19,585 nt of DNA from an uncultured archaeon (GTDB lineage: Archaea > Asgardarchaeota > Heimdallarchaeia > Heimdallarchaeales > Kariarchaeaceae): NCBI GenBank assembly GCA_964645535.1, contig CAZYCQ010000028.1:1-19585 (forward strand), written 5' to 3'. The notes under the pieces are model-generated. The model did not search any database and had not been told where the DNA came from. It worked only from the letters and a program-made list of their open reading frames with translations. The first letter of the stretch is position 1; the number at the start of each line of letters is the position of its first letter. Below, piece after piece: positions 4,312 to 18,434 of this stretch. The position numbers and the translations under genes are program-made.

Positions 4312-4827
4312 TCAATCAAGGAATGGATATTTTTCCACAATCGGATCCCATTGCGGGAGTTTTGGTCCAATGTTCTTGGCATTTGCGAAGAGGAGGAGGA
4401 ATGCACCATATACGAGGTGGTCATCGAAGATGGGGTTGTGGGATTCATCGATTGCTGCCCACGGGGCAACTGCGATCCACATGAGGAACATGAGTAGGGC
4501 ACCGCCGTACCCTGCAATTTTTCTTCCAATGCCTAGGAGGAGTGAAATACCAATACCATAAAGGGCGAGCATGAACAGCCAATCTACAAGCACATTTCCG
4601 GCCATTGCTTCGAACATCCCCTTAAGTGGGCTGTTGGCCGTTCCGAATTTGAGGAACCCGAATGTTGGTGATCCGTCGCCGAATCCAAATAGCCATTTGT
4701 CTTCGGGAGCAGTTGTGTATCTGAGTCCGAAGGTTTTGTCAAGAGCTGCCCACAGGAAAATTCCCGCGAGCATAATCCTCGTCACGAGGAAGAATATGGG
4801 TTCGAGTTTGTTATTGTTTTCGCTCAA
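4312..4827 (-). CDS. DoxX family membrane protein (DoxD/thiosulfate:quinone oxidoreductase large-subunit-like)
   Basis: R-x-x-L-x-G-I-F-L-W-A-x-L-D-K in TM1, four hydrophobic segments and HNPIFDDHLVY. The start is moved to TTG 4827 because GGAGG lies at 4840-4836. Confidence 0.8.
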   Translation of the reverse strand: MSENNNKLEPIFFLVTRIMLAGIFLWAALDKTFGLRYTTAPEDKWLFGFGDGSPTFGFLKFGTANSPLKGMFEAMAGNVLVDWLFMLALYGIGISLLLGIGRKIAGYGGALLMFLMWIAVAPWAAIDESHNPIFDDHLVYGAFLLLFANAKNIGPKLPQWDPIVEKYPFLD

Positions 4828-5025: not shown

Positions 5026-5053
5026 GCGGGAATTTTGTTTAAATTTGGCGGTA
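5026..5053. promoter_or_regulatory. Pair of E2F-like sites in the DoxX/ATPase E divergent promoter region
   Basis: GCGGGAATT at 5026-5034 and AAATTTGGCGGTA at 5041-5053. The second is the exact reverse complement of 9686-9698. Confidence 0.4.
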
Positions 5054-5101
5054 TCGTTCACAACTATTAAAAGATGGAGCATTGTTCTAGGGTCAAGGAA
5101 T

Positions 5102-5752
5102 ATGACGGACAGCGATTCAACCACACATAATGTTACAGAGGGACTTGCCCTGATCAAGAAGAGCATTGAAGAAGAAGCCAAGTCCAAAGCTGCCATAGTG
5201 ATCAAGGAAGCTAAAGCAGAAGCAGAAGCAATCTTGAAAAATGCCAAGGAGGAGGCTGAGAAACTCAAGTCTTCCTTACTCAAGGAGCAAGAGGCCATGG
5301 CCAAACAGATTCTGCAGAAAGAGATTTCCAAGAAACGACTCCAAGGGAAGATGGAGGTTCTGGAGACTCGTGAACAGGTGATTGAAAGTCTGATGACAGA
5401 TCTGCGCACGGAATTGCAGAAGTACACCAAAGACAAGAAATATGCAGAAACATTGGAAAGCTTCTTCATGGAAGGTGCCCTTGCCATTGGAGGAGGAGAT
5501 TTGGTACTTCAATTGAGGGATGAGGATAAACCCCTTTTTCCGAAGGAAAAGTTGGCAGAACTTGCAAAGAAGATAGAAAAGGAAACAGGTACACCAACGA
5601 CAATAGAATTGGCAGATCGTTCCTTGAAGACCATGGGTGGGTTGAAAGTTTCCGCAAAAGATGGCAGCGTCTGGGTGGACAATACTTTTGAATCAAGGAT
5701 TGAACGTCAGTACGACGACTTGCGCATCGCGATTATGCGGGCTTTGGCTTAA
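5102..5752 (+). CDS. atpE: A/V-type ATP synthase subunit E
   Basis: N-terminal EA-rich coiled coil (IEEEAKSKAAIVIKEAKAEAEAIL) and C-terminal GGLKV..DG.VWVDNTFESRI. ATG 5102 is preferred over the ORF-track GTG 5024. Confidence 0.9.
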   Translation: MTDSDSTTHNVTEGLALIKKSIEEEAKSKAAIVIKEAKAEAEAILKNAKEEAEKLKSSLLKEQEAMAKQILQKEISKKRLQGKMEVLETREQVIESLMTDLRTELQKYTKDKKYAETLESFFMEGALAIGGGDLVLQLRDEDKPLFPKEKLAELAKKIEKETGTPTTIELADRSLKTMGGLKVSAKDGSVWVDNTFESRIERQYDDLRIAIMRALA

Positions 5753-5762
5753 GGTGGGTCTT

Positions 5763-6293
5763 ATGCGGCGATTGGCTGGTTTTTTCTTGGTTGCCTTCCT
5801 ATTCTTTGGACTTGCGTCAGCTAATGGCGAGACATATATCGGCTTTGGAGGGTACGTTGAAAGCCAGTCCGTTCTGAAGGGGTCGAAGGTCTGGTTTGGA
5901 GGATCCTTCTTCAACAATAACACAGAAGGGAATGTAAAGGTACATTCCATGAACGTTTCTTTCGTCATTGGTCGTGGGGCGCAGAAGCTGTTGTTGAATG
6001 CCTCGGAAACCATCCCCGAGGACAGGCAGGAAGTCAATGTCAATGAGACCTTTACATATGCAATGCTTGTCAAAGTCGATTTTGATCCCGGCATCTACAA
6101 TGTTTCAATATTTTTTGAGGTATCAGGAGGAAGCGAGGCGATCCGTGACAATATTTACTCCCTTTCCAATGCCACTTTTGTCATAAGAGGTGAATCAAAT
6201 CCAGAAGCAGTTACTCGAGGGATTTTGATCTTCTTGGGTGGAATTACCGGAGCAATTGTCCTCATCCTTTTGTACAATAGGTTTAGGTCTTAG
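5763..6293 (+). CDS. Type I membrane glycoprotein, translocon-associated protein alpha (TRAP-alpha/SSR1)-like
   Basis: Signal peptide (MRRLAGFF..ASA), a beta-rich domain with 6 N-x-S/T sequons and a C-terminal TM helix. The pattern V.F...F.N.....V.S...SF ... N.T..I resembles the TRAP-alpha lumenal domain. The TRAP assignment is by eye. Confidence 0.55.
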   Translation: MRRLAGFFLVAFLFFGLASANGETYIGFGGYVESQSVLKGSKVWFGGSFFNNNTEGNVKVHSMNVSFVIGRGAQKLLLNASETIPEDRQEVNVNETFTYAMLVKVDFDPGIYNVSIFFEVSGGSEAIRDNIYSLSNATFVIRGESNPEAVTRGILIFLGGITGAIVLILLYNRFRS

Positions 6294-6336
6294 GCAGGAA
6301 CTTACTCTTTTTAACCGGTGCAGAAATATTTTAGAT

Positions 6337-6687
6337 ATGGTTTCAAAGGCCGAGATATTTGAACTTGAAAGTGTAGAAGAGTTAATTCGACTGGTTGTGG
6401 CAAATTCCCAGCATCGAGGAGGCCATATTTATGTTGGTAATCGAGATGGAGAATGGTATTATTTCGTCAACCACTTGGTTCCCAATTGGTTTGAATTAAG
6501 AGGATTGCCAGTGACGATCTTTGCTCGAAGCAAAAAGGAACCATCGGGTCCATTTATAGCCTACGAATATGTTAATCTAGGGGGAAGCGGGGAGACATGG
6601 AAATTTGTATCTTCAGTAGGCGAAAATCCCCAAATTGCCTATGTACCGATCGTTCGGGTAAAGGAAATTCCGGAATTTATTTTGTAG
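6337..6687 (+). CDS. Archaeal-type hypothetical protein (116 aa)
   Basis: Fills the gap between genes and has a globular composition (ELESVEELIRLV ... YVPIVRVKEIP). ATG 6337 is the likely start. Confidence 0.7.
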   Translation: MVSKAEIFELESVEELIRLVVANSQHRGGHIYVGNRDGEWYYFVNHLVPNWFELRGLPVTIFARSKKEPSGPFIAYEYVNLGGSGETWKFVSSVGENPQIAYVPIVRVKEIPEFIL

Positions 6688-7875
6688 TCACACCATATGT
6701 CGTTTAAGGAACCGATCCATTCTAGTTAGACCTTCTTCCAGAATATCAGGGGTTGAGAGATAAACCATTCTGAAATGGTCAGGGACTCCAAAACCAGACC
6801 CATGGACCATAAGAACCTTTTCTTCCTTAAGTAGGTTGATGATGACGTCTTGGTCGGAGGAGAAGTTGAGCATGTCAAGATGCAATTTTGGAAAAATGTA
6901 GAAGGCCGCTTTGGGAATCTGGGTGGTGATTGTCTCCATCTCATTGAATCTTCGAACCACAAGATCTCTGCGTTCTCGAACTTTTCTAATTAGTTCAGGG
7001 AGGTGGGGGGGATTGAGATCAAGACCCATTACGGAGGCATAGGAGATGGGAGTGTTTGGGGAGAGTCGTGTTCTGCACAGTTTTCTTACCCCTTCATAAG
7101 GTTCTTCAATTCTACCTTCTGGATCGATGGCATACATATATGCAGCCCTCCAGCCGGGTGCAAGGTAATTTTTGGAAAATCCATTGAATACCACCACCGG
7201 AACATCTTTGGAGATGGTCGACATCGAGGTAAAGGGATCACCATCAAGCAACATCCTGTCGTAGATTTCATCTGCCACAATTGCAGCGTCGTATTCTCCG
7301 ACAATGTCCTTCAGTTTCCTTAAGGTTGCTTCAGGATAGACTGCACCAGTGGGATTGTTGGGATTGATGACGACCACAAGTTTTGTGGTGTTGTCGATTT
7401 TTGAACGGATATCATCAAGGTCAGGAGCCCAACCCAGCTCTTCAGAACAACGGTAGGCTTCGAGTTTTGCTTGAGATACCGTTGCAATGCTTTGATATGC
7501 GGGATAGGTGGGGGCGGGAACGAGAACCTTATCACCAGGATTCAGGAAGGCAAGAAACAGATAGAGAATTCCTTCACTGACACCCTGAGTGAAAATCACA
7601 TCATCAGGATGTACACCATTGGAGTATTTGGCATTTTCATATTCAGCAATTTTAGTTCTGACGAATTCGTCACCTTCTGATTGGGAGTAGTATCCCCGGT
7701 TGAGGTTGTCCCTGAGAGCATTCTGCATAGTCTGTGGGACATTGAAGTCGAACTTGTTTGGGTCACCTATATTGAAGAAGAGAATTTCATGACCTTCTTT
7801 TTGCATTTGATTAGCGACCTGCTGGACATCCCTTATTGCATATTTCATGGAGCCAACTCTATTGGATATCTGCAT
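6688..7875 (-). CDS. alaA: Class I/II PLP aminotransferase, alanine aminotransferase (AlaA-type)
   Basis: YAIRDV, NIGDP..FDF, INPNNPTG, DEIYD and GFSKNYLAPGWR (PLP lysine). ATG 7875 is the likely start. Confidence 0.85.
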   Translation of the reverse strand: MQISNRVGSMKYAIRDVQQVANQMQKEGHEILFFNIGDPNKFDFNVPQTMQNALRDNLNRGYYSQSEGDEFVRTKIAEYENAKYSNGVHPDDVIFTQGVSEGILYLFLAFLNPGDKVLVPAPTYPAYQSIATVSQAKLEAYRCSEELGWAPDLDDIRSKIDNTTKLVVVINPNNPTGAVYPEATLRKLKDIVGEYDAAIVADEIYDRMLLDGDPFTSMSTISKDVPVVVFNGFSKNYLAPGWRAAYMYAIDPEGRIEEPYEGVRKLCRTRLSPNTPISYASVMGLDLNPPHLPELIRKVRERRDLVVRRFNEMETITTQIPKAAFYIFPKLHLDMLNFSSDQDVIINLLKEEKVLMVHGSGFGVPDHFRMVYLSTPDILEEGLTRMDRFLKRHMV

Positions 7876-8054
7876 CAATCCGTTGTGGCCTTGGTTGTTC
7901 AAAAACCATACGTCAATGGCTACAGGATTTTGCCAAGGATTAGAGACAGCCCGCGTAATTGATGTCTAGATTTTAAAACCATGGATCATAAATTGAATTA
8001 ATCCTGCAGTAAAGGTGACAAAAGTCGACCTGAACTACCATAAGGAGATGATGT

Positions 8055-8228
8055 ATTATTAAAGGTGAAAAGAAAGTAAGGTCTGTCGGCAAGGGCACTC
8101 GTTCTTGTCGCAGGTGCGGAACACACCGTGGCATAATCAGAAGGGCCGACCTTTTGATATGCAGACGATGCTTCAGGGAAGTTGCCGGTCAACTGGGCTT
8201 CCAAACAACAGGAGACAGAGGTGGTTGA
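8055..8228 (+). CDS. rps14: 30S ribosomal protein uS14 (zinc-finger type), apparent ATT start
   Basis: Manual translation gives [60 protein letters not shown], with two CxxC pairs, in the canonical position before rps8. It is absent from the ORF track. The start is 8055 or 8058. Confidence 0.93.
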
Positions 8229-8231
8229 TGC

Positions 8232-8621
8232 ATGCAGTTCGATCCATTGGCAGATGCATTATCCAAGATTGACACTTACGATCGGGCCGGAAAGAAGGAG
8301 GTTTTCATCAGACCGACAAGCAACCTGATCCAAGACGTGCTCGCCACCCTTCAGAAGGCCGGTTATATTGGAGAATTTGAGCGTGTTGAAGACGCACAGG
8401 GAGGACAATTCCGTGTGCAGCTTCTTGGACGTATCAACAAATGTGCGGTGATCAAACCAAGACAACCGACAAAGGTCACAGAAATCGATGAATTCGAGAA
8501 AAGGTTTCTTCCAGCAGTTAACTTTGGGATCCTTGTTCTGACAACCCCATTGGGCGTAATGACACAAAGGGAAGCCATTGAGAACCATGTCGGTGGAAGA
8601 TTGCTGGCGTATGTCTATTAG
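8232..8621 (+). CDS. rps8: 30S ribosomal protein uS8
   Basis: DPLADALSKI, GYIGEFE, LLGRINKC.VIKPR and GGRLLAYVY. SD GAGGTG upstream. Confidence 0.97.
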   Translation: MQFDPLADALSKIDTYDRAGKKEVFIRPTSNLIQDVLATLQKAGYIGEFERVEDAQGGQFRVQLLGRINKCAVIKPRQPTKVTEIDEFEKRFLPAVNFGILVLTTPLGVMTQREAIENHVGGRLLAYVY

Positions 8622-8630
8622 GTGATTGAA

Positions 8631-9182
8631 ATGTTCGGTAGATTGCAGAAAACCGTAACCATCCCTGAAGATGTGGATTTCAAGCTTGAGGGGTCAGTAA
8701 TCACGGTCAAAGGCCCATTGGGTGAATTGACACGTGATTTTTCCTTTAGTGGATTAATCTTTGAAAGGAAAGGAGATGAATTGGTCATTTCAGTCCTTTT
8801 CCCTAAACGAAAGGAGAAAGCCCTCCTTGGTGCCGTTGAATCCCACGTGAAGAACATGATCCATGGGGTCACAAAAGGCTATAAATACAGTATGAAAATT
8901 GTTTTCTCCCACTTTCCAATCAAGGTGATTCCAGAAGGTTCGCAGGTTAAAATCGAAAACCTGTATGGAGGTCGGAAGCCCCGATATGCAAAAGTGCTTC
9001 CTGGAGTTAAGGTTGAAGTGGACGGAGAAAACGTCTATGTCAGCGGCATTGACAAGGAAAAAGTTGGTCAGACATGTGCCAACATTCAAGAGCTGACTAG
9101 GCTTCGTGGCAAACGCCGTAAGTCACCAAAAACTTTCATGGACGGTATTTTTACATTTGATAGAAGTGGAACCATGCAATAA
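8631..9182 (+). CDS. rpl6: 50S ribosomal protein uL6
   Basis: VKGPLGELTRDF, NMIHGVTKGY, HFPI, GIDKEKVGQTCANI and FMDGIF. SD GGTGA lies 5 nt before ATG 8631. Confidence 0.97.
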   Translation: MFGRLQKTVTIPEDVDFKLEGSVITVKGPLGELTRDFSFSGLIFERKGDELVISVLFPKRKEKALLGAVESHVKNMIHGVTKGYKYSMKIVFSHFPIKVIPEGSQVKIENLYGGRKPRYAKVLPGVKVEVDGENVYVSGIDKEKVGQTCANIQELTRLRGKRRKSPKTFMDGIFTFDRSGTMQ

Positions 9183-9183
9183 T

Positions 9184-9549
9184 TCAATCACTGAAAGGTT
9201 CAATTGATAGTTTAGCTTGATCATCAAGTTCAATTACAACTTCAGATCCACGATTTGCGACATTATAGATGGATCCTTCAGTGGACACCCTGATTTTTGA
9301 GGCAAAGAAGGATGTTCCGGATTCATTCCCTTGGGGTGGTATCGTTTGGTCATCTGTCCAAAAGATTCTGGTTCCCCCTCCTTCTCGTTCAGTTGTGATA
9401 AGGTTTGCTGCCTTCAGGATGGCAATGACATCGTACACCCGTCTTTTGGGTGTCCCAATAATTTCTGCAAGCTCTGCATTGTTGATACCTTCTTCGCCTT
9501 TTTGTTTGATTATTTCAATAGCTCTAGCAGCAATTTCTTTCAGTTTCAT
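9184..9549 (-). CDS. E2F/DP-family winged-helix DNA-binding protein (121 aa)
   Basis: NNAELAEIIGTPKRRVYDVIAILKAANLI...RIFW matches the E2F/DP signature RR(I/V)YD..(N)VL....(L/I)I...I.W. SD GAGGT at 9560-9556 and TATA-like TTTATA at 9626-9621. Confidence 0.75.
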   Translation of the reverse strand: MKLKEIAARAIEIIKQKGEEGINNAELAEIIGTPKRRVYDVIAILKAANLITTEREGGGTRIFWTDDQTIPPQGNESGTSFFASKIRVSTEGSIYNVANRGSEVVIELDDQAKLSIEPFSD

Positions 9550-9685
9550 ACTACAACCTCTTGCCAAATCGATGATAGTTCATCGTTTGTTTTTCTGAAT
9601 TATCTTAGCCCAATCTTCTCTATAAACATTATGCCATTGTTGAGAATGACCTTTTAATTCAGCAGTTTTGGGGTTTGTTCGCGTG

Positions 9686-9709
9686 TACCGCCAAATTTTT
9701 GAATTTGGC
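9686..9709. promoter_or_regulatory. E2F-like site and inverted repeat upstream of the E2F-like gene
   Basis: TACCGCCAAATTT at 9686-9698 contains TTTGGCGG on the minus strand. GCCAAATT-tttg-AATTTGGC at 9690-9709 is an inverted repeat with 8-bp arms. Confidence 0.45.
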
Positions 9710-9813
9710 TCCAAAATTGGAGGGCGATTGTGGTGAAAAAATATTACCAAAGAATATATACTAGTACATTTTGGGATTCCGAAATGATGATTGAATGTTC
9801 GATTCTCGCGATA

Positions 9814-9836
9814 GACGCGCGACATTGTCGCGCGTC
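9814..9836. promoter_or_regulatory. Perfect CGCGCG inverted repeat, candidate operator
   Basis: GACGCGCGACA-T-TGTCGCGCGTC, with 11-bp arms and a 1-nt spacer, in an AT-rich divergent intergenic region. Confidence 0.6.
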
Positions 9837-9892: not shown

Positions 9893-11071
9893 ATGGAGGA
9901 AGCCTATTTTGTTTTGCAGGAAAGGAGAGTTTCACAATTTCTTGGTTCAGTTGTTGGATCGGTGACGGCAGAGATTTTTGCCCAAGCTAAACTATTGCAA
10001 AGGCAAGGAAAATCCATAATCAACTTAGCAATTGGACAACCAGATTTCCTACCACCTAACGAGGTGTTGTCCACTGCTTCCAGAGCGATACTTGAAGGCA
10101 ACGTTCGGTATGCTGAAAGTAAAGGAATTTATGAACTTAGAAAAGCAGTAACAGATTATTATGGTCTTCCCCTTGATGTTGAAAACGAAGTAGTCATTAC
10201 GACAGGTGCAAAAATGGGGATTTTTGCATCGATCTGGACAGTGTGCAATCCAGGAGACAATGTTGTTATCCTTGATCCTTCTTGGGTATCTTATGGTTCC
10301 ATTGTTAAGTCCTTGGGATGTGAACCTCGTTACGTTGAAACAGGTCCGGATTTTGTTTTTGACGAAGAAGATTTGATAAGGAAAATCGATGGAAGGACAA
10401 AAGCAGTCATCGTAAACACCCCTTCAAATCCGACAGGGCAGATAATTGGTCAAACTCAATTTCAGAGGATTTTTGAACTTTGTGCCTCCAACGAGATTCT
10501 TTTGGTCAGCGATGAAATCTACAATGAATACGTCTTTGGATCGAAAAAGTTTACCTCGTTGGGTAGCATTAAGAATTGGAAAGAGCATGGAGTAATTGTC
10601 AATGGATTTTCCAAGACTTTTTCGATGACTGGTTTCAGATTAGGTTATACATTATCCAACGAAGTGATTGCCAAGGAAATCAACAAGGTAATGCAATTGA
10701 CAGCAAGTTGTGCATCACCCTTTGCTCAACTAGCTGGGATTTCTGGTTTGGAGCATATTGATGACATGAGAGAAAGGATTCAAACAATTATGAAGCCCCG
10801 TTTGAAAAGATTGATTGAGTTGGATGAGGAGCTGGAGGGGTTCAAGCTCCTTCCTCCTCAAGGAGCCATGTATGGGTGGTTCCAATTGGATGGAAAGGTG
10901 GAAAGTGCAAAATGGGCGCAACAACTCCTATCGGAAAAAGGGGTAGCTGTGACACCGGGTATCGGTTTTGGTCCACATGGAGAGGGATGGTTCAGAGTTT
11001 CCTTTGCAACAGACCCAAGAGTGTTGGAGGAAGGACTTCGCAAAATAGAGGAATTTGTAAGAGGTATTTAA
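9893..11071 (+). CDS. Class I/II PLP aminotransferase (aspartate aminotransferase-like)
   Basis: IGQPDF, NTPSNPTG, SDEIY, GFSKTFSMTGFRLGY and PG.GFG..GEGWFRVSF. The start could be TTG 9914. Confidence 0.9.
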   Translation: MEEAYFVLQERRVSQFLGSVVGSVTAEIFAQAKLLQRQGKSIINLAIGQPDFLPPNEVLSTASRAILEGNVRYAESKGIYELRKAVTDYYGLPLDVENEVVITTGAKMGIFASIWTVCNPGDNVVILDPSWVSYGSIVKSLGCEPRYVETGPDFVFDEEDLIRKIDGRTKAVIVNTPSNPTGQIIGQTQFQRIFELCASNEILLVSDEIYNEYVFGSKKFTSLGSIKNWKEHGVIVNGFSKTFSMTGFRLGYTLSNEVIAKEINKVMQLTASCASPFAQLAGISGLEHIDDMRERIQTIMKPRLKRLIELDEELEGFKLLPPQGAMYGWFQLDGKVESAKWAQQLLSEKGVAVTPGIGFGPHGEGWFRVSFATDPRVLEEGLRKIEEFVRGI

Positions 11072-14000
11072 TGGGAGACAAAAATTGAAGGACTTCCGAG
11101 TTCTTTGATCAGAGAATCTATATGGAATACCAAGGTTCTGACTTCAGAAGGATTTTGTTCAAGCATTGAATAAAGATTTGTGGCTTTTTCCAAGAAAGCA
11201 GAATTTGAGTCGGAAAGATTGATGATTGTTTGTAGGTAGTCCAAGGCAATTGAACTTATATCATTCTTGCAATTTTCATTGAATTCACAATCCATGAGGT
11301 AATAAAAAAGCCCAATGGCATAGAGGCCTGTGAGCAGTTCTGATGAGAGTTGGTTTGCTTTTGAGGCCTTTCGTTTTAAGGTTTGGAGGAGGGATCGCAA
11401 TTCATGGTATCCCTCAGTAACCATATCCAAGGCCTGATAAAAACGCATCCAATCCCTAAATCGTGCATGGATGGAATATTTCGCTTCAAATTTCTGTTTT
11501 GAATTAATTATTTTATTGAATATACGCTGAAACTGGGGGCGGTTTTCCGGGATATTTTTACCAAAAGTAATAATGAGGATTTGGGCGTATTCAATATGTT
11601 TCCTTTCTTTCGTTCGGATATAAGCAATAATAAGTTCATCTATGGCAAGTTCAATCATTTCAAGTACTCTTTCTTTTGGAAGGGCTTTTGTGGACTCAAT
11701 AATTTTTGGGGCATATTGGATAAAGGTTGCGGCATTTGCGGGAGTAGGATTACTTTCATAATTTTCCACCATTCGAAGGAATGCATCGATCACCATTTCG
11801 GAAAATTGTTTGATCTGATCATTTTCTTTTCCTGAATCGCGGATCAATTCAATTCCTTCGATGGCGAGATGATAAGCCAATTCACCTTCTCCTTTTTGTA
11901 AGAGTTCATGATGGCCGGTTTTGAGTTCGCTCAGAACATCGTCAACACGGTTCTGGCTTTTGTAGATTTCAATTAGATCCTGTTTGATTTGTACAATTTG
12001 TTCAGGATTAAGGTATCCTTGATGGCTTTCTTCCATTGCAAGCTGGGATTTAAGTATTCTTTCCTTAATGTCAAGGTCTGTATTCAGGTCAAGAGAAATT
12101 TGAACCAATTCATGCGCAATTGGAGCCATATTCATTTCAATAAGAGTTTTTTGGAGGTGAAGAAGTTTGTCTACCCATGGAATTTCAGCCATCTGTCGAA
12201 TGGTGAAAAACATTCGGTAAAATGTAACCAAAGATTCGATATCTCTGACTTCAAGAGCCACATCAATCGCTTGATCCATAATTTCGGAGAGTAGATCAAG
12301 ATCTTCGTTTAAGACGCTCATTTCAGTAATATCATAGAATATTTGTATGGAAAACCGTCTTTCTTTAATTAGAATTTCCTTATTAACAGCATTTAATGCG
12401 GATCTGGCCATTGCTTTTAGAATTTGGTGTCGATGCTGAGTGTAATTCAGAAAATTTGCGGCAAAATCAAGTAATTGAAGATAAAGGGAATACTTACCGT
12501 ATTTTCCAGCAGTGATTAGTAACTTTTCAATTATGGGTGAAACACGGTCTGCATCATTACGATGTTCTCGTAGATACTCCATCAGATCATCAATAAGGGA
12601 AGGATCATCTTCTTCTTCTTCAAAGATGAGATCAAGAAGCCTTGCATTGATGATTGCAATCAAGTCTTGAAACTCTTCGAAATGGATCAAATGCTCTTTA
12701 ATTATCTTGAGAACCTGAACCTGTTCAAGAATGGGAACCTTTTCGATATTTTTGGTAATGGCAACCGTAAAAGAAAGAATCAAACGTTTTCGTTTTTCTT
12801 GTGTCAATTTTGTGAAGAGATTTTGAATCTGCTCGATAAGAATCGGACCAGCGGGAGCAACTTCTAGGGCATTGACTAAATAGGGGGTCAGCATATCTGC
12901 AAGACCCTTTTCATTGGTTGTAGGAAGGGAGGTAGCCCATAGCAAAATTTCAAAAATTTCGAGGCTGTGAATCTCCTCATCTATGTTATCAAATTCATGC
13001 AATCGTAGAGTAAGAGCATCTTCTACAAGTCCAACCGTGGCTAGTGCATTAGCAAGAGATACCTTCTCATCCTTGGTTTTTGCAATGTCCACGAAGTCAA
13101 GGTAAATTTCAGCAAGGATATCACGGATTTCATTTTCTGGATTTGGGAAATTAACAGTAAGTATTTCGATGAAGCTTAGAATCTGTTGACTTCCCCATTT
13201 GGAAATTTTGTTCCCAATTTTTTTTATGATTTGAAAGAGACGTTGCTCGATAACAATTTCGATAACTGAACCAATGACCATAAGGGCAATTTCTTTTTCA
13301 TTTTGGGAGTACAAAAGGTCGGCAAGATTGACAAGGTTGACAAGTTCCTCTTGGGAAAATTCCGTTCGAATCGTCATGAAATCATTTATTGCATCTTTTG
13401 TGAGAAATTGGAGAAGATCAGAACCTAAAAGGGATAGCTGTTCAGAGTATTTGGCGATAAAGTTCATATTCGGCATTTCATTTTCGAAGTTTTCCAATTC
13501 ATTCAGCATTGGAATGAAGTCTTGATATCTTTGTTGCCTTTCAGTTTCTGCAAAAGAACTAAGGTAGTCGAGAAGGTAAAATCCAATTCTTGACAATGAA
13601 GGTATGGAAGAGGTGAGTACTTGCTGAAGTCCCTTAATTGGAATCTGTTCACTCTTGAATTCGATTTCCAAGGTATTATAGGTAATCTTTGTGCGTGAAG
13701 CATTGAGTAGAGCAAGAGGATTAAATGCAATCAAATTCCATAGATAGTTGGCAAGTTCAGAAAAGGTTTCAAATGAAAGAGCTGCTTTTGGAAAAGAAAA
13801 GTCCATGATTGAATAGTTATCAGGATCGATTTCTTCCGTTGGAGAAAAGTTAAGCAATTCTTCAACAAGTTCATCCCAATATTTGGAAGTGCTGTGCAAG
13901 AAATTCCAGATAGTTACAATGAACCGTTTCCTGTTTTCATCATCTTCAATGATTGGAATTGATAGGAAAACACCACCTTGCATTTCCACCTTCCAACCGA

Positions 14001-14202
14001 AGAAAAAGATACGACGTTTGTTGATGAATAGGGTGCCATGGTCTTCCCAAGGATCAAAATTTGTTGTGTCGGAAATCCATTCCTCAACAACCGATGTAAA
14101 CATCTGATCCCTCTCCCCTTTCCATAAGACGGAATAATCACCTAGATTTTCAAGATTAGAGGTTCCTTCTTTTAAGGAGGTAAGTAAGCAAAGACTAATC
14201 AT
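11068..14202 (-). CDS. Large hypothetical protein (1044 aa): N-terminal alpha/beta domain followed by a long alpha-helical solenoid-like region
   Basis: Long uninterrupted ORF with L/E/I-rich amphipathic helices and no TM segments. Its ATG overlaps the upstream stop codon (ATGA). Confidence 0.85.
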   Translation of the reverse strand: MISLCLLTSLKEGTSNLENLGDYSVLWKGERDQMFTSVVEEWISDTTNFDPWEDHGTLFINKRRIFFFGWKVEMQGGVFLSIPIIEDDENRKRFIVTIWNFLHSTSKYWDELVEELLNFSPTEEIDPDNYSIMDFSFPKAALSFETFSELANYLWNLIAFNPLALLNASRTKITYNTLEIEFKSEQIPIKGLQQVLTSSIPSLSRIGFYLLDYLSSFAETERQQRYQDFIPMLNELENFENEMPNMNFIAKYSEQLSLLGSDLLQFLTKDAINDFMTIRTEFSQEELVNLVNLADLLYSQNEKEIALMVIGSVIEIVIEQRLFQIIKKIGNKISKWGSQQILSFIEILTVNFPNPENEIRDILAEIYLDFVDIAKTKDEKVSLANALATVGLVEDALTLRLHEFDNIDEEIHSLEIFEILLWATSLPTTNEKGLADMLTPYLVNALEVAPAGPILIEQIQNLFTKLTQEKRKRLILSFTVAITKNIEKVPILEQVQVLKIIKEHLIHFEEFQDLIAIINARLLDLIFEEEEDDPSLIDDLMEYLREHRNDADRVSPIIEKLLITAGKYGKYSLYLQLLDFAANFLNYTQHRHQILKAMARSALNAVNKEILIKERRFSIQIFYDITEMSVLNEDLDLLSEIMDQAIDVALEVRDIESLVTFYRMFFTIRQMAEIPWVDKLLHLQKTLIEMNMAPIAHELVQISLDLNTDLDIKERILKSQLAMEESHQGYLNPEQIVQIKQDLIEIYKSQNRVDDVLSELKTGHHELLQKGEGELAYHLAIEGIELIRDSGKENDQIKQFSEMVIDAFLRMVENYESNPTPANAATFIQYAPKIIESTKALPKERVLEMIELAIDELIIAYIRTKERKHIEYAQILIITFGKNIPENRPQFQRIFNKIINSKQKFEAKYSIHARFRDWMRFYQALDMVTEGYHELRSLLQTLKRKASKANQLSSELLTGLYAIGLFYYLMDCEFNENCKNDISSIALDYLQTIINLSDSNSAFLEKATNLYSMLEQNPSEVRTLVFHIDSLIKELGSPSIFVSH

Positions 14203-14555
14203 TTGGTTCCCTCCAGTTCAAGGATGCTCTCCATTTTGATGACAAGATCCTCATAGTACTCCAATAACCAAAGACTAATGTCATTTTCCTCAACGAATGG
14301 TGTTGAAATTTTTGTAATGTGGTCTTTGATTGCACCATGGATTTGTGAATCTTCTATGAAATTAACTTCTGACCAAATAGAAGATGCAAATGACCCTACG
14401 AGTGGCTCATTGTCAAGTATCTGTTCAATTTGGATTGCCAATTCGGTGAATCGATCTTTAGTGGATTGGAGTTCCATTTCTACTTTTTTTCTTGGTTGTT
14501 TGAATACAGGCTTTTTTCTGCGAAAGAAGTTTAACCGAATGCCGAACAGGTTCAT
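14199..14555 (-). CDS. Small helical hypothetical protein with a hydrophobic/basic N-terminus
   Basis: Translationally coupled to the 1044-aa gene. AAAATTATAA at 14590-14581 suggests a leaderless ATG at 14555 (or 14561) rather than 14633. Confidence 0.7.
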   Translation of the reverse strand: MNLFGIRLNFFRRKKPVFKQPRKKVEMELQSTKDRFTELAIQIEQILDNEPLVGSFASSIWSEVNFIEDSQIHGAIKDHITKISTPFVEENDISLWLLEYYEDLVIKMESILELEGTK

Positions 14556-14611
14556 CTTCATCCAATATGGCAACAGCACCTTATAATTTTGTGCGAAACT
14601 TAATGGAATAA

Positions 14612-15070
14612 TTAGAGTTCCGGTTGATCCCAAGTGGCATATTGTTCAACCCATTGGCGAACCTTCTGTTTGAAACCTTCTGGATCTTCTTTCATCATTT
14701 TGGCAGCTCCTGAATGAAGAGGGTCGTCAGGATTAGGATTACTCAACAAAAATCTAAGGCTTTCGACTACATCAACCAAATTGTTGGCAGGAGTCCAATC
14801 TTTGCCTAGGATCCCAATGCAAATTCGATCCTTGAAGAAATTCGGATGGAATATTTGTGTCTTTGTTTTTACAATAGGGGGTTTGAATGGGTATTCTCTA
14901 GGAATTTGGATCTCAAACACAAATACCCCATCACTGTATAGACCCGTTCCAATAATAAATCCCTTCCATCTTGTAATATCATTGTCAATTGGTTCAAAAC
15001 TTGGTTCCTCTCTTTTCATTTCATCGGCTTCGATAGCTAATCTGGCCCAGTAATCATCTTCTGGAAGTAT
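14612..15070 (-). CDS. Ubiquitin-conjugating enzyme E2, apparent ATA start
   Basis: W.G.I.G...Y..G.F, PREYPFKPP, FHPN, catalytic Cys in RICIGIL, WTPA and PNPDDPL. The frame extends upstream of ATG 15019 as ILPEDDYWARLAIEADEM (E2 helix 1) up to TAG 15079-15077. Confidence 0.93.
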   Translation of the reverse strand: MLPEDDYWARLAIEADEMKREEPSFEPIDNDITRWKGFIIGTGLYSDGVFVFEIQIPREYPFKPPIVKTKTQIFHPNFFKDRICIGILGKDWTPANNLVDVVESLRFLLSNPNPDDPLHSGAAKMMKEDPEGFKQKVRQWVEQYATWDQPEL

Positions 15071-16930: not shown

Positions 16931-18434
16931 GTGAAGCAGAAACCCTTTCAATTACCATTCCCTCAAGCTTATACATCTGTGAATTATTGGCAACATTCAA
17001 GGCTCGTTCAAGATGAGATTCCTTTGTTGCATGGATACGGAGTAAGGGAGTTCCCTTAGTTACAAATTCACCGGCCTTGTGGAGTAGATACATTCCAGCT
17101 TTCTTGTTAACAGGGCAGCCAAGTTCTCTTGCAATCTTCTTGATTGCAGTATTGGAAATATGGGATATATATCCATCAGCATAAGCTTTCACTTCAGCAG
17201 TGTATTGCCCTATTTCTATGTCTTCAGGCATTACTTTGGCGTTGCCGCCTTGAGCATCAATGATTTCCCGCATCTTTGCAAGAGCTTTTCCACTTCTCAG
17301 GATGTCATCGGCCATCCGCGCACCTTCCCCTTTTGGTACAAGTTTTGCCATTTCAAGAAGAATTCCAGCAAGCTCAACAGATTTTTCATGAACACTTCTC
17401 GGTCCATTTCCCATAAGAGTTTCCAATGCTTCTTTTGCCTCAAGAGCAGGCCCTATTGCATGACCTACAGGTTGATCAGCATAAGTAAGAGCACAATCAA
17501 CCTCTATTCCAACCTTTCGACCAATCTCCACAAACTTATGAGCAAGAGCCTTTGCGGTGGTTCTTGTTTCAAGTTTGGTTCCAGGACCAGTGGGCATGTC
17601 AAGTACTAGATGTTTAACACCAGTTGCCAATTTCTTTGAAAGAATGGAAGCAATAATGATGGATTCAGGATCTAGTCCCAATGGTCGTTCAATTCTTGAA
17701 ATAATTTTTGAATCTACGGGAGCTAAGTTCAAATGACCACCCCAAACAATCATGCCTCTTGTTTTTGGTGCAATTTCCTGTATTTCCTCTGCGGTGAAAT
17801 CAACATTTGCAAGCACTTCCATAGTGTCGGCAGTTCCTGATGGGGAAGTGATCGCCCTGCTACTTGTTTTCGGAATAAGAAGTCCTGCGGCAGCAACAAT
17901 CGGAACGATTACAAGCGACACCTTGTTTCCAGCAATTCCTCCAACAGAATGTTTATCATAAACAGGTTCATTGAAAGAAAGTTGTGTTCCATGATAGGCA
18001 AAACCTTTGGTAAGGTTTACCGTTTCCTCATCACTCAGATTTTCATATTGGATGGCAAGGGTAAATGCAGCCATTTCAAGGTCAGTAAGGTTCTCATTGT
18101 AGATGTCATCTAGAATTACTCTAATATCATCTCCTGACCAAACATGACGGTCATATTTCTTCATTATGACATCAACACTTTTTGGACGGGCACGAGGGGC
18201 TATACTTACAGGCTTTCTTTTCTTTACGCCCAATTGCTTTGCAAGGGTAGGAGGAAACCCAATTTCTCCTTTCTGAACAAGGGTTTCAGAGAAGACAACA
18301 TTTACAAGAAGCCGTTTCTGGGCAACACTTACTTGTGCCATCATTGTTGTCGGATCCCTAGGGTCTCCATCAGATGGATTTAAAACTACCAATCGATCCG
18401 TTGTATCAAAATTCTCTAATATTTTTCCTTTCAT
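16920..18434 (-). CDS. deoA: AMP phosphorylase (archaeal thymidine phosphorylase family)
   Basis: Extra N-terminal domain, DKHSVGG..GNK, KTSSRAITSPSGTAD, SILSKK and GPALEA. 504 aa. Confidence 0.95.
   Translation of the reverse strand: MKGKILENFDTTDRLVVLNPSDGDPRDPTTMMAQVSVAQKRLLVNVVFSETLVQKGEIGFPPTLAKQLGVKKRKPVSIAPRARPKSVDVIMKKYDRHVWSGDDIRVILDDIYNENLTDLEMAAFTLAIQYENLSDEETVNLTKGFAYHGTQLSFNEPVYDKHSVGGIAGNKVSLVIVPIVAAAGLLIPKTSSRAITSPSGTADTMEVLANVDFTAEEIQEIAPKTRGMIVWGGHLNLAPVDSKIISRIERPLGLDPESIIIASILSKKLATGVKHLVLDMPTGPGTKLETRTTAKALAHKFVEIGRKVGIEVDCALTYADQPVGHAIGPALEAKEALETLMGNGPRSVHEKSVELAGILLEMAKLVPKGEGARMADDILRSGKALAKMREIIDAQGGNAKVMPEDIEIGQYTAEVKAYADGYISHISNTAIKKIARELGCPVNKKAGMYLLHKAGEFVTKGTPLLRIHATKESHLERALNVANNSQMYKLEGMVIERVSASPIE

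Follow-up and report, generated by a model that had tools for sequence, protein, structure and literature searches.

Conserved E2F-like sites before an Asgard archaeal E2F-like gene and their possible role in autoregulation

Introduction

Does a short word shared by the promoters of an E2F-like gene and an ATP synthase gene mark an archaeal E2F regulon? The question is raised by a 19,585-nucleotide stretch of DNA (hereafter the window) from an uncultured archaeon of the Kariarchaeaceae (Asgardarchaeota), contig CAZYCQ010000028.1 of assembly GCA_964645535.1. This window corresponds to contig C28 in the genome G000 (3.6 Mb, 89% complete). G000 belongs to the family that we call f1 and, with G001-G003, to the genus g1. 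In the window, an identical 13-mer lies upstream of the genes for ATP synthase subunit E (atpE) and for a 121-residue E2F-like transcription factor. The original prediction took it as the sign of an E2F-like regulon linking growth and energy genes. Some Asgard genomes carry E2F homologs (PMC7617429). In the literature searched, which did not reach most subscription journals, we found no report of binding sites or targets of an Asgard E2F, and a term search confined to the main text of PMC10307638 returned no mention of E2F. Here, we find that the predicted regulon divides in two. The E2F/DP-family gene is genuine and its own promoter carries a conserved, E2F-like site, but a regulon of growth and energy genes is unsupported.

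Results

A conserved element in the promoter of the E2F-like gene

We use "dyad" for a 12-bp pattern consisting of TTT, SS, CG, SS and AAA in that order, built from the consensus of the original prediction and that of PMC4862756. "Tetramer" refers to the ThaI-type, self-complementary four-base word that is the target of M.ThaI (PMC11033074). The E2F-like gene and its upstream region hold the following features.

9184-9549, minus strand: E2F-like transcription factor gene, 121 amino acids (Pfam E2F_TDP; winged helix with RRXYD, then a four-strand beta domain)
9620-9634, minus strand: candidate B recognition element (BRE) and TATA box of the E2F-like gene, about 70 nt ahead of the start codon; 7-column invariant run in 4/4 genus genomes
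9684-9695, minus strand: E2F-like dyad site 2, holding the core of the 13-mer (9686-9698); two mismatches to the dyad in G000
9704-9715, minus strand: E2F-like dyad site 1, earlier described as the inverted partner; a single mismatch, which falls on the central base; lies 20 bp ahead of site 2
9734-9743, minus strand: T-rich block, a 10-column invariant run in 4/4 genus genomes
9814-9836, unstranded: 23-bp palindrome with a 15-bp core at 9818-9832; two 8-column invariant runs; overlooked in the original prediction
9893-11071, plus strand: class I/II aminotransferase, the divergent neighbour (Pfam PF00155)

The segments at 9620-9634 and, before atpE, at 5059-5073 are designated candidate BRE/TATA on the basis of the archaeal consensus.

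Across the four genus genomes, 97 of 321 promoter columns (30%) are invariant. The palindrome accounts for two of the long invariant runs (8 + 8), and the others cover the T-rich block (10 columns), the TATA region (7 columns) and the start codon, each in all four genomes. The offset between sites 1 and 2 is likewise fixed at 20 bp in all four, while the letters of the spacer vary. In G001 and G002, site 2 fits the dyad without a mismatch and contains the exact E2F consensus of PMC4862756. G000, G001 and G002 each have a single copy of the paired dyad pattern, at the E2F-like promoter; G003 has none, and the five further matches in 37 other genomes all lie at unrelated places. In all intergenic DNA there are three close pairs of dyad-like words, and the pair at the E2F-like promoter alone has a member with one mismatch. 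The exact palindrome core is found once per genome at the E2F-like promoter in all four genus genomes and in none of the 37 other relatives; additional copies with one mismatch lie in coding DNA. Tetramers occur in the palindrome core (9818-9832), at 9807-9810 and at 9680-9683. In G003 (L006) the neighbouring aminotransferase is flipped, and all conserved blocks remain with the E2F-like gene, whose orthologs are 72-77% identical in protein. The conserved, E2F-like self-promoter element is real and testable.

The E2F-like protein and its family

The 121-residue protein scores 36.4 bits against Pfam E2F_TDP (cut-off 25.7), and 45 of 45 aligned homologs match this family at E up to 1. A profile of these homologs searched against PDB sequences ranks E2F8 (7e-10), E2F4 (1.3e-6) and DP2 (0.018) at the top. 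The RRXYD motif (R36, R37, Y39, D40), required for DNA binding (PMC5463435), is invariant in all 45, and the AlphaFold model shows a winged helix, with the four strands as a domain of their own. Judged from its sequence, the product of 9184-9549 is a genuine E2F/DP-family winged-helix protein. Several of the matched proteins bear the NCBI label "E2F family transcription factor". Across the phylum, 69 of 201 genomes yielded E2F homologs, with a patchy distribution among families. Two weak matches from a metagenome scan (L214 and L215) look, on reading, like eukaryotic E2Fs.

The coiled coil is missing from this protein and its family, and the strands are retained. Longer Asgard homologs have a 49-residue helix inserted ahead of the four strands (e.g. 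L102:1693-2049). Their order of winged helix, coiled coil and four strands is that of E2F/DP, with its coiled coil and marked box; the short family has lost the coil and kept the strands. Support from structure for the marked box is weak. With the long homolog L102, Foldseek placed E2F1 of 2aze (chain B) third, at E 1.2, probability 0.38 and a root-mean-square deviation (rmsd) of 15, and VIA gave an alignment of 84 residues that spans coil and strands (Z 3.7, rmsd 14.1), both weak matches. The coiled-coil and marked-box domains gave no Pfam or profile match, and an Atlas fold search of the C-terminal domain returned no match.

We found one E2F-like gene and no separate DP partner in G000, a genome 89% complete, whereas some relatives carry two paralogs. 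A homodimer prediction for the protein scored 0.31 against a mark of 0.42. The Rb pocket domain RB_B was matched in 0 of 12 genomes, and control genomes likewise gave no match.

E2F-type words before E2F-like genes of other families

Our survey covered 56 Asgard E2F-like promoters (one further locus was not readable). An 8-nt core lies at most 200 nt from 6 of the 13 E2F-like genes of f1, with 0.0 expected from 300 shuffles, and three of these six genes are outside the genus (3/9). A related 7-nt word stands ahead of all four f18 genes and the single f27 gene.

Several observations weigh against taking these words, or the two dyads, as E2F sites. The 7-nt word is present in just 11 of the 56 promoters. 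It is missing from 7 of 13 in f1 and from 38 outside f1, including 0/20 in f10, 0/5 in f22, 0/4 in f19, 0/3 in f4 and 0/3 in f24, and likewise from f3, f9 and f12. Kin are not independent, the four f18 promoters being from one genus. The core of G007 and G008 lies directly against the TATA region, where it might be a piece of an extended BRE, and in f10 another conserved motif is found next to TATA (14 matches across 20 promoters versus 0.1 expected). Within the genus, site 2 has two dyad mismatches in G000 and retains the GC core with its flanks lost in G003, and site 1 is without the central CG that eukaryotic E2F reads. In addition, several fold searches, including those with the whole protein, matched generic winged helices or coiled coils and did not list E2F.

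The f10 motif (upstream of L102-L106, L114, L116-L132 and L191-L210) is A-rich, contains CG and directly precedes BRE/TATA, often in two or three copies; it is a candidate self-site of that clade. The f10 E2F-like proteins resemble a protein labelled Thorarchaeota. In f4 (L013, L014, L016), a conserved stretch of 70-90 nt with paired segments runs from TATA to the E2F-like start codon, which could be a structured 5' leader.

The atpE copy and the proposed regulon

The features that bear on the wider regulon are these.

5026-5053, plus strand: E2F-like words upstream of atpE (5026-5034 and the 13-mer at 5041-5053); present, not conserved; 3-4 mismatches to the dyad
5059-5073, plus strand: candidate BRE and TATA box of atpE; 4/4 genus genomes share two invariant runs, one of 7 and one of 9 columns
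5102-5752, plus strand: A/V-type ATP synthase subunit E, atpE (Pfam PF01991, 4e-30)
7950-7960, plus strand: weak candidate word between an aminotransferase gene (alaA) and rps14; 4 mismatches to the dyad

The words lie where the original prediction had placed them: the exact 13-mer at 5041-5053 (plus strand) and 9686-9698 (minus strand), the partner word at 5026-5034, the inverted pair 9690-9697 and 9702-9709, a weak word (7950-7960) and two look-alikes inside coding sequence (4755-4767, 17264-17271). The two copies of the 13-mer are the only exact ones in the whole genome, 48 nt from the start of atpE (5102) and 136 nt from that of the E2F-like gene (9549). They had been assigned to two divergent promoters. 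Each does sit in a divergent intergenic region of its own, but the two do not form one divergent pair, as atpE and the E2F-like gene converge.

A 13-mer common to two intergenic segments is found in 23 of 123 non-overlapping 19.6-kb windows of the genome, the present one counted, and in 6 of 123 when at least five G+C are required. Shuffled segments gave 4-17 such windows over 20 rounds. Sharing of the 13-mer is by itself not beyond chance. Since so many windows share one, what matters is selection on each copy. At atpE, both words are gone in five of five relatives (G001, G002, G003, G007 and G008), and the adjacent BRE/TATA-like block is retained in all five. The atpE copy is best read as a look-alike, arisen by chance or by a recent gain at the species level.

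E2F-type words are not enriched between genes genome-wide, the very outcome that the original prediction had named as its refutation. Over 329 kb of unique intergenic DNA in G000, we counted 9 copies of the 8-nt core (5.7-6.9 expected), 17 of the originally proposed consensus (18-21 expected), 48 of a wider degenerate consensus (45-47 expected) and 14 of the dyad with at most one mismatch (12.1 +/- 3.0 in 30 shuffles). Genes were called with a hexamer-based caller, which gave 3,379 genes and 90% coding and missed rps14 in the window. An E2F-type word is found upstream of 0/27 cdc6/orc1, 0/5 MCM, 0/4 PCNA and 0/12 atpK genes, and of 1/5 ribonucleotide reductase (RNR) genes, where it is not conserved. 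The cdc6/orc1 set holds 27 genes from 12 genomes; 3 of 30 loci were excluded as truncated, and some starts were chosen inside the gene. The thymidylate kinase gene and C94 have candidate sites that are missing in 5/5 and 3/3 of their orthologs, respectively. The weak candidate between alaA and rps14 found no support either, with its four mismatches to the dyad. Therefore, with the atpE copy unconserved, 13-mer sharing common, no enrichment and no conserved words at cdc6, MCM, PCNA, RNR or atpK, a broad regulon is unsupported.

Upstream of several cdc6/orc1 genes and one MCM gene (L237, L233, L234, L239, L244, L247, L250 and L256) lies a T-rich word followed by a C-run, which resembles a mini-ORB element. 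The archaeal histone family PF00808 had no match in G000, G001, G002, G003 and G007, though three controls matched; this absence may reflect divergence. The genes for ATP synthase subunits E, K and A/B are spread over three contigs.

A methyltransferase promoter rich in the same tetramer

An exact dyad match in G003 pointed to a DNA methylase gene, which in G000 is as follows.

G000:C3:88346-89284: persistent DNA methyltransferase of the N4/N6 type (PF01555, SPPY motif), putatively forming N4-methylcytosine (m4C)

In an unbiased scan for intergenic tetramer clusters, the E2F-like promoter came first (6 in 343 nt) and the methylase promoter second (4 in 334 nt). Two of the six counts at the E2F-like promoter overlap. 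Given the overlaps and about 2,100 segments, clustering within one genome is marginal, and other CG-rich tetramers cluster above Poisson expectation too (e.g. 3 versus 0.49 and 8 versus 2.2 segments). Conservation of the tetramer before the methylase is stronger evidence than clustering in a single genome. The 250 nt upstream of eight of eight close f1 orthologs (24-36% G+C) hold 28 tetramers, 2-7 each; there are none in G005 and three in 17 homologs outside f1 (7 of 33 loci in this survey were not readable by script). In the methylase promoter (G000:C3:88346-89618; L061-L068), the proximal tetramer overlaps the BRE, and a distal site in G000, G002, G003 and G007, read by eye, resembles an E2F site. 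The enzyme has a full-length match of at least 56% identity in 10 of 11 f1 relatives, and the genes around it vary over 12 loci. Inside the order, E2F and methylase are both present in f1, f3 and f4 and both absent from f2. Co-occurrence across the phylum fails: in f10, 38 of 43 genomes have E2F and 2 of 43 the enzyme, and f5, f17 and f26 have the enzyme with no E2F match.

Methylation of the tetramer to m4C is known in archaea (PMC11033074, PMC10609329, PMC8919816) and appears in two Asgard methylomes (PMC11529989, Table S11-A). The tetramer also accompanies a conserved upstream block at the ESCRT-I operon UEV-Vps28-Vps36/22 (G000:C52:4880-5720; L045, L288-L290) in all four genus genomes. Outside the genus, it is present by eye in one of nine readable promoters (G014), those of G008 and G012 being unreadable. 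The tetramers may be read by E2F, by the methylase or by both, and those of the methylase promoter possibly represent either self-methylation feedback or an E2F target.

A 107-residue helical protein has seven upstream ThaI-type tetramers in G006 (L217:1400-2093) and four in G008 (L137:1410-2030). The two versions share 52% identity over 63 residues, and the protein was not found in G000.

Other features of the window

The genes rps14-rps8-rpl6 (8105-9182) are a detached piece of the spc operon that converges on the E2F-like gene. A ubiquitin-conjugating E2 gene (14612-15019) belongs to a run at 11068-15019 that also encodes proteins of 144 and 1,044 residues with no Pfam match. A PLD-ResIII helicase-DUF3427 gene (171-2937) is split over four consecutive frames and looks like a broken restriction or defence gene. 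No Rfam family was matched in the window.

Discussion

We give about an even chance to the reading that the E2F-like gene is controlled through the conserved elements at 9684-9836, by which its product would regulate its own transcription at a eukaryote-like E2F site. Eukaryotic E2F genes regulate themselves through E2F sites. Autoregulation is suggested here because E2F-type sites are kept before the gene's own start. The sites and their spacing persist in all four genus genomes against a background of 30% invariant columns, and they stay with the E2F-like gene when its neighbour flips. In addition, site 2 matches the E2F consensus exactly in G001 and G002, the core precedes 6 of 13 f1 genes, and RRXYD is invariant. 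What we infer from these observations is the binding itself, the dimer state and whether regulation is positive or negative. With no DP partner found, the protein would most likely bind as a homodimer. Its RRXYD helix would contact the two 12-bp, GC-cored and T/A-flanked dyads, one homodimer per dyad. With the dyads 20 bp apart, both dimers would lie on the same side of the DNA helix, 50-80 nt ahead of TATA. Binding would then set transcription of the gene itself, a feedback that is probably repression.

Other explanations for the same elements have to be weighed. The palindrome and the other tetramers might be putative targets of the C3 methyltransferase, which would tune its own promoter and the E2F-like one with no need for E2F binding. 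The two top tetramer clusters are indeed these two promoters, the tetramers precede eight of eight close f1 methylase orthologs, the enzyme is a PF01555 methylase with SPPY, and m4C on the tetramer is seen in archaea, two Asgard methylomes included. Methylation of a site in the enzyme's own promoter is the subject of a preprint on CfrBI (10.64898/2025.12.04.692298). However, such feedback leaves the two dyads unexplained, as neither contains a tetramer in G000. Homologs outside f1 lack the cluster, the pairing of enzyme and tetramer is putative, and other CG-rich tetramers cluster as well, with two of the six counts overlapping; we consider this explanation unlikely. Another factor, such as an archaeal helix-turn-helix regulator or a TFB paralog acting on an extended BRE, might instead bind the sites, their E2F likeness being coincidental. 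Perfect 15-bp palindromes are a usual mark of other dimeric regulators, the core adjoins TATA in L007, L018 and L019, and most Asgard E2F-like promoters are without the word. The core does not generally precede TATA, though, being in 0 of 197 promoter-like sites (strict pattern; 197 of 2,439 upstream regions). Its distance from TATA within the genus is 50-80 nt, and an exact E2F consensus ahead of an E2F gene would be a specific coincidence, so that we regard this alternative as distinctly improbable.

Neutral carry-over among close kin would fit a full architecture seen in four genomes of one genus only. Against it stand invariant blocks and fixed spacing inside a sequence otherwise 30% invariant, orthologs 72-77% identical in protein and recurrence of the core in other genera, and we hold it to be very improbable. 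The regulon as first proposed, joining ATP synthase, ribosomal and growth genes, draws on an identical 13-mer at these two promoters only, on the place of the atpE copy, 5 nt before the BRE, where an activator could act, and on two ThaI-type tetramers before atpK in G007. Its atpE site is missing in five of five relatives and its words are not enriched between genes. Replication, deoxynucleotide and atpK genes are without a conserved word, and the candidate sites are conserved in 0 of 5 thymidylate kinase and 0 of 3 C94 orthologs. It is already largely refuted, with very little chance of being correct.

The system may be compared with known ones. Eukaryotic E2F1-6/DP share the winged helix with RRXYD, the coil-plus-strands order of the long Asgard homologs and the consensus (PMC4862756) matched exactly in two relatives. 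In contrast, G000 has a single 121-residue protein that has lost the coiled coil and is too short to include a tail for transactivation or Rb binding, and its replication genes lack conserved E2F-type sites. The atypical E2F7/E2F8, DP-independent repressors, include the best profile match, E2F8, and need no DP or Rb domain (PMC5463435). Unlike them, the G000 protein has one DNA-binding domain rather than two in tandem, together with a C-terminal beta domain. In Caulobacter, CcrM is linked with CtrA in a methylation feedback. Like this pair and CfrBI, the archaeon has a persistent methyltransferase, a class for which ccrM is a named example (PMC10609329), and a promoter loaded with one short palindromic word. 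Here, however, the target word and any cell-cycle timing are putative, and methyltransferase and E2F do not travel together across the phylum.

It is conceivable, if a long shot, that in this Heimdallarchaeia family a DP-less E2F homodimer already reads the eukaryotic E2F site in a small circuit of its own gene, the m4C methyltransferase and, within the genus, the ESCRT-I operon, with CG methylation gating the binding. If true, this would be an archaeal switch in the style of CtrA/CcrM built from E2F, older than the takeover of replication genes by E2F. Asgard E2F homologs have been cited as a hint of archaeal roots for eukaryotic cell-cycle transcription. The consensus-matching pair of sites offers a 32-bp probe of whether E2F specificity predates eukaryotes, and the differing conserved motifs of other Asgard families are a natural series for the co-evolution of protein and site. 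As replication genes lack such sites, the binding code may have arisen before the G1/S regulon.

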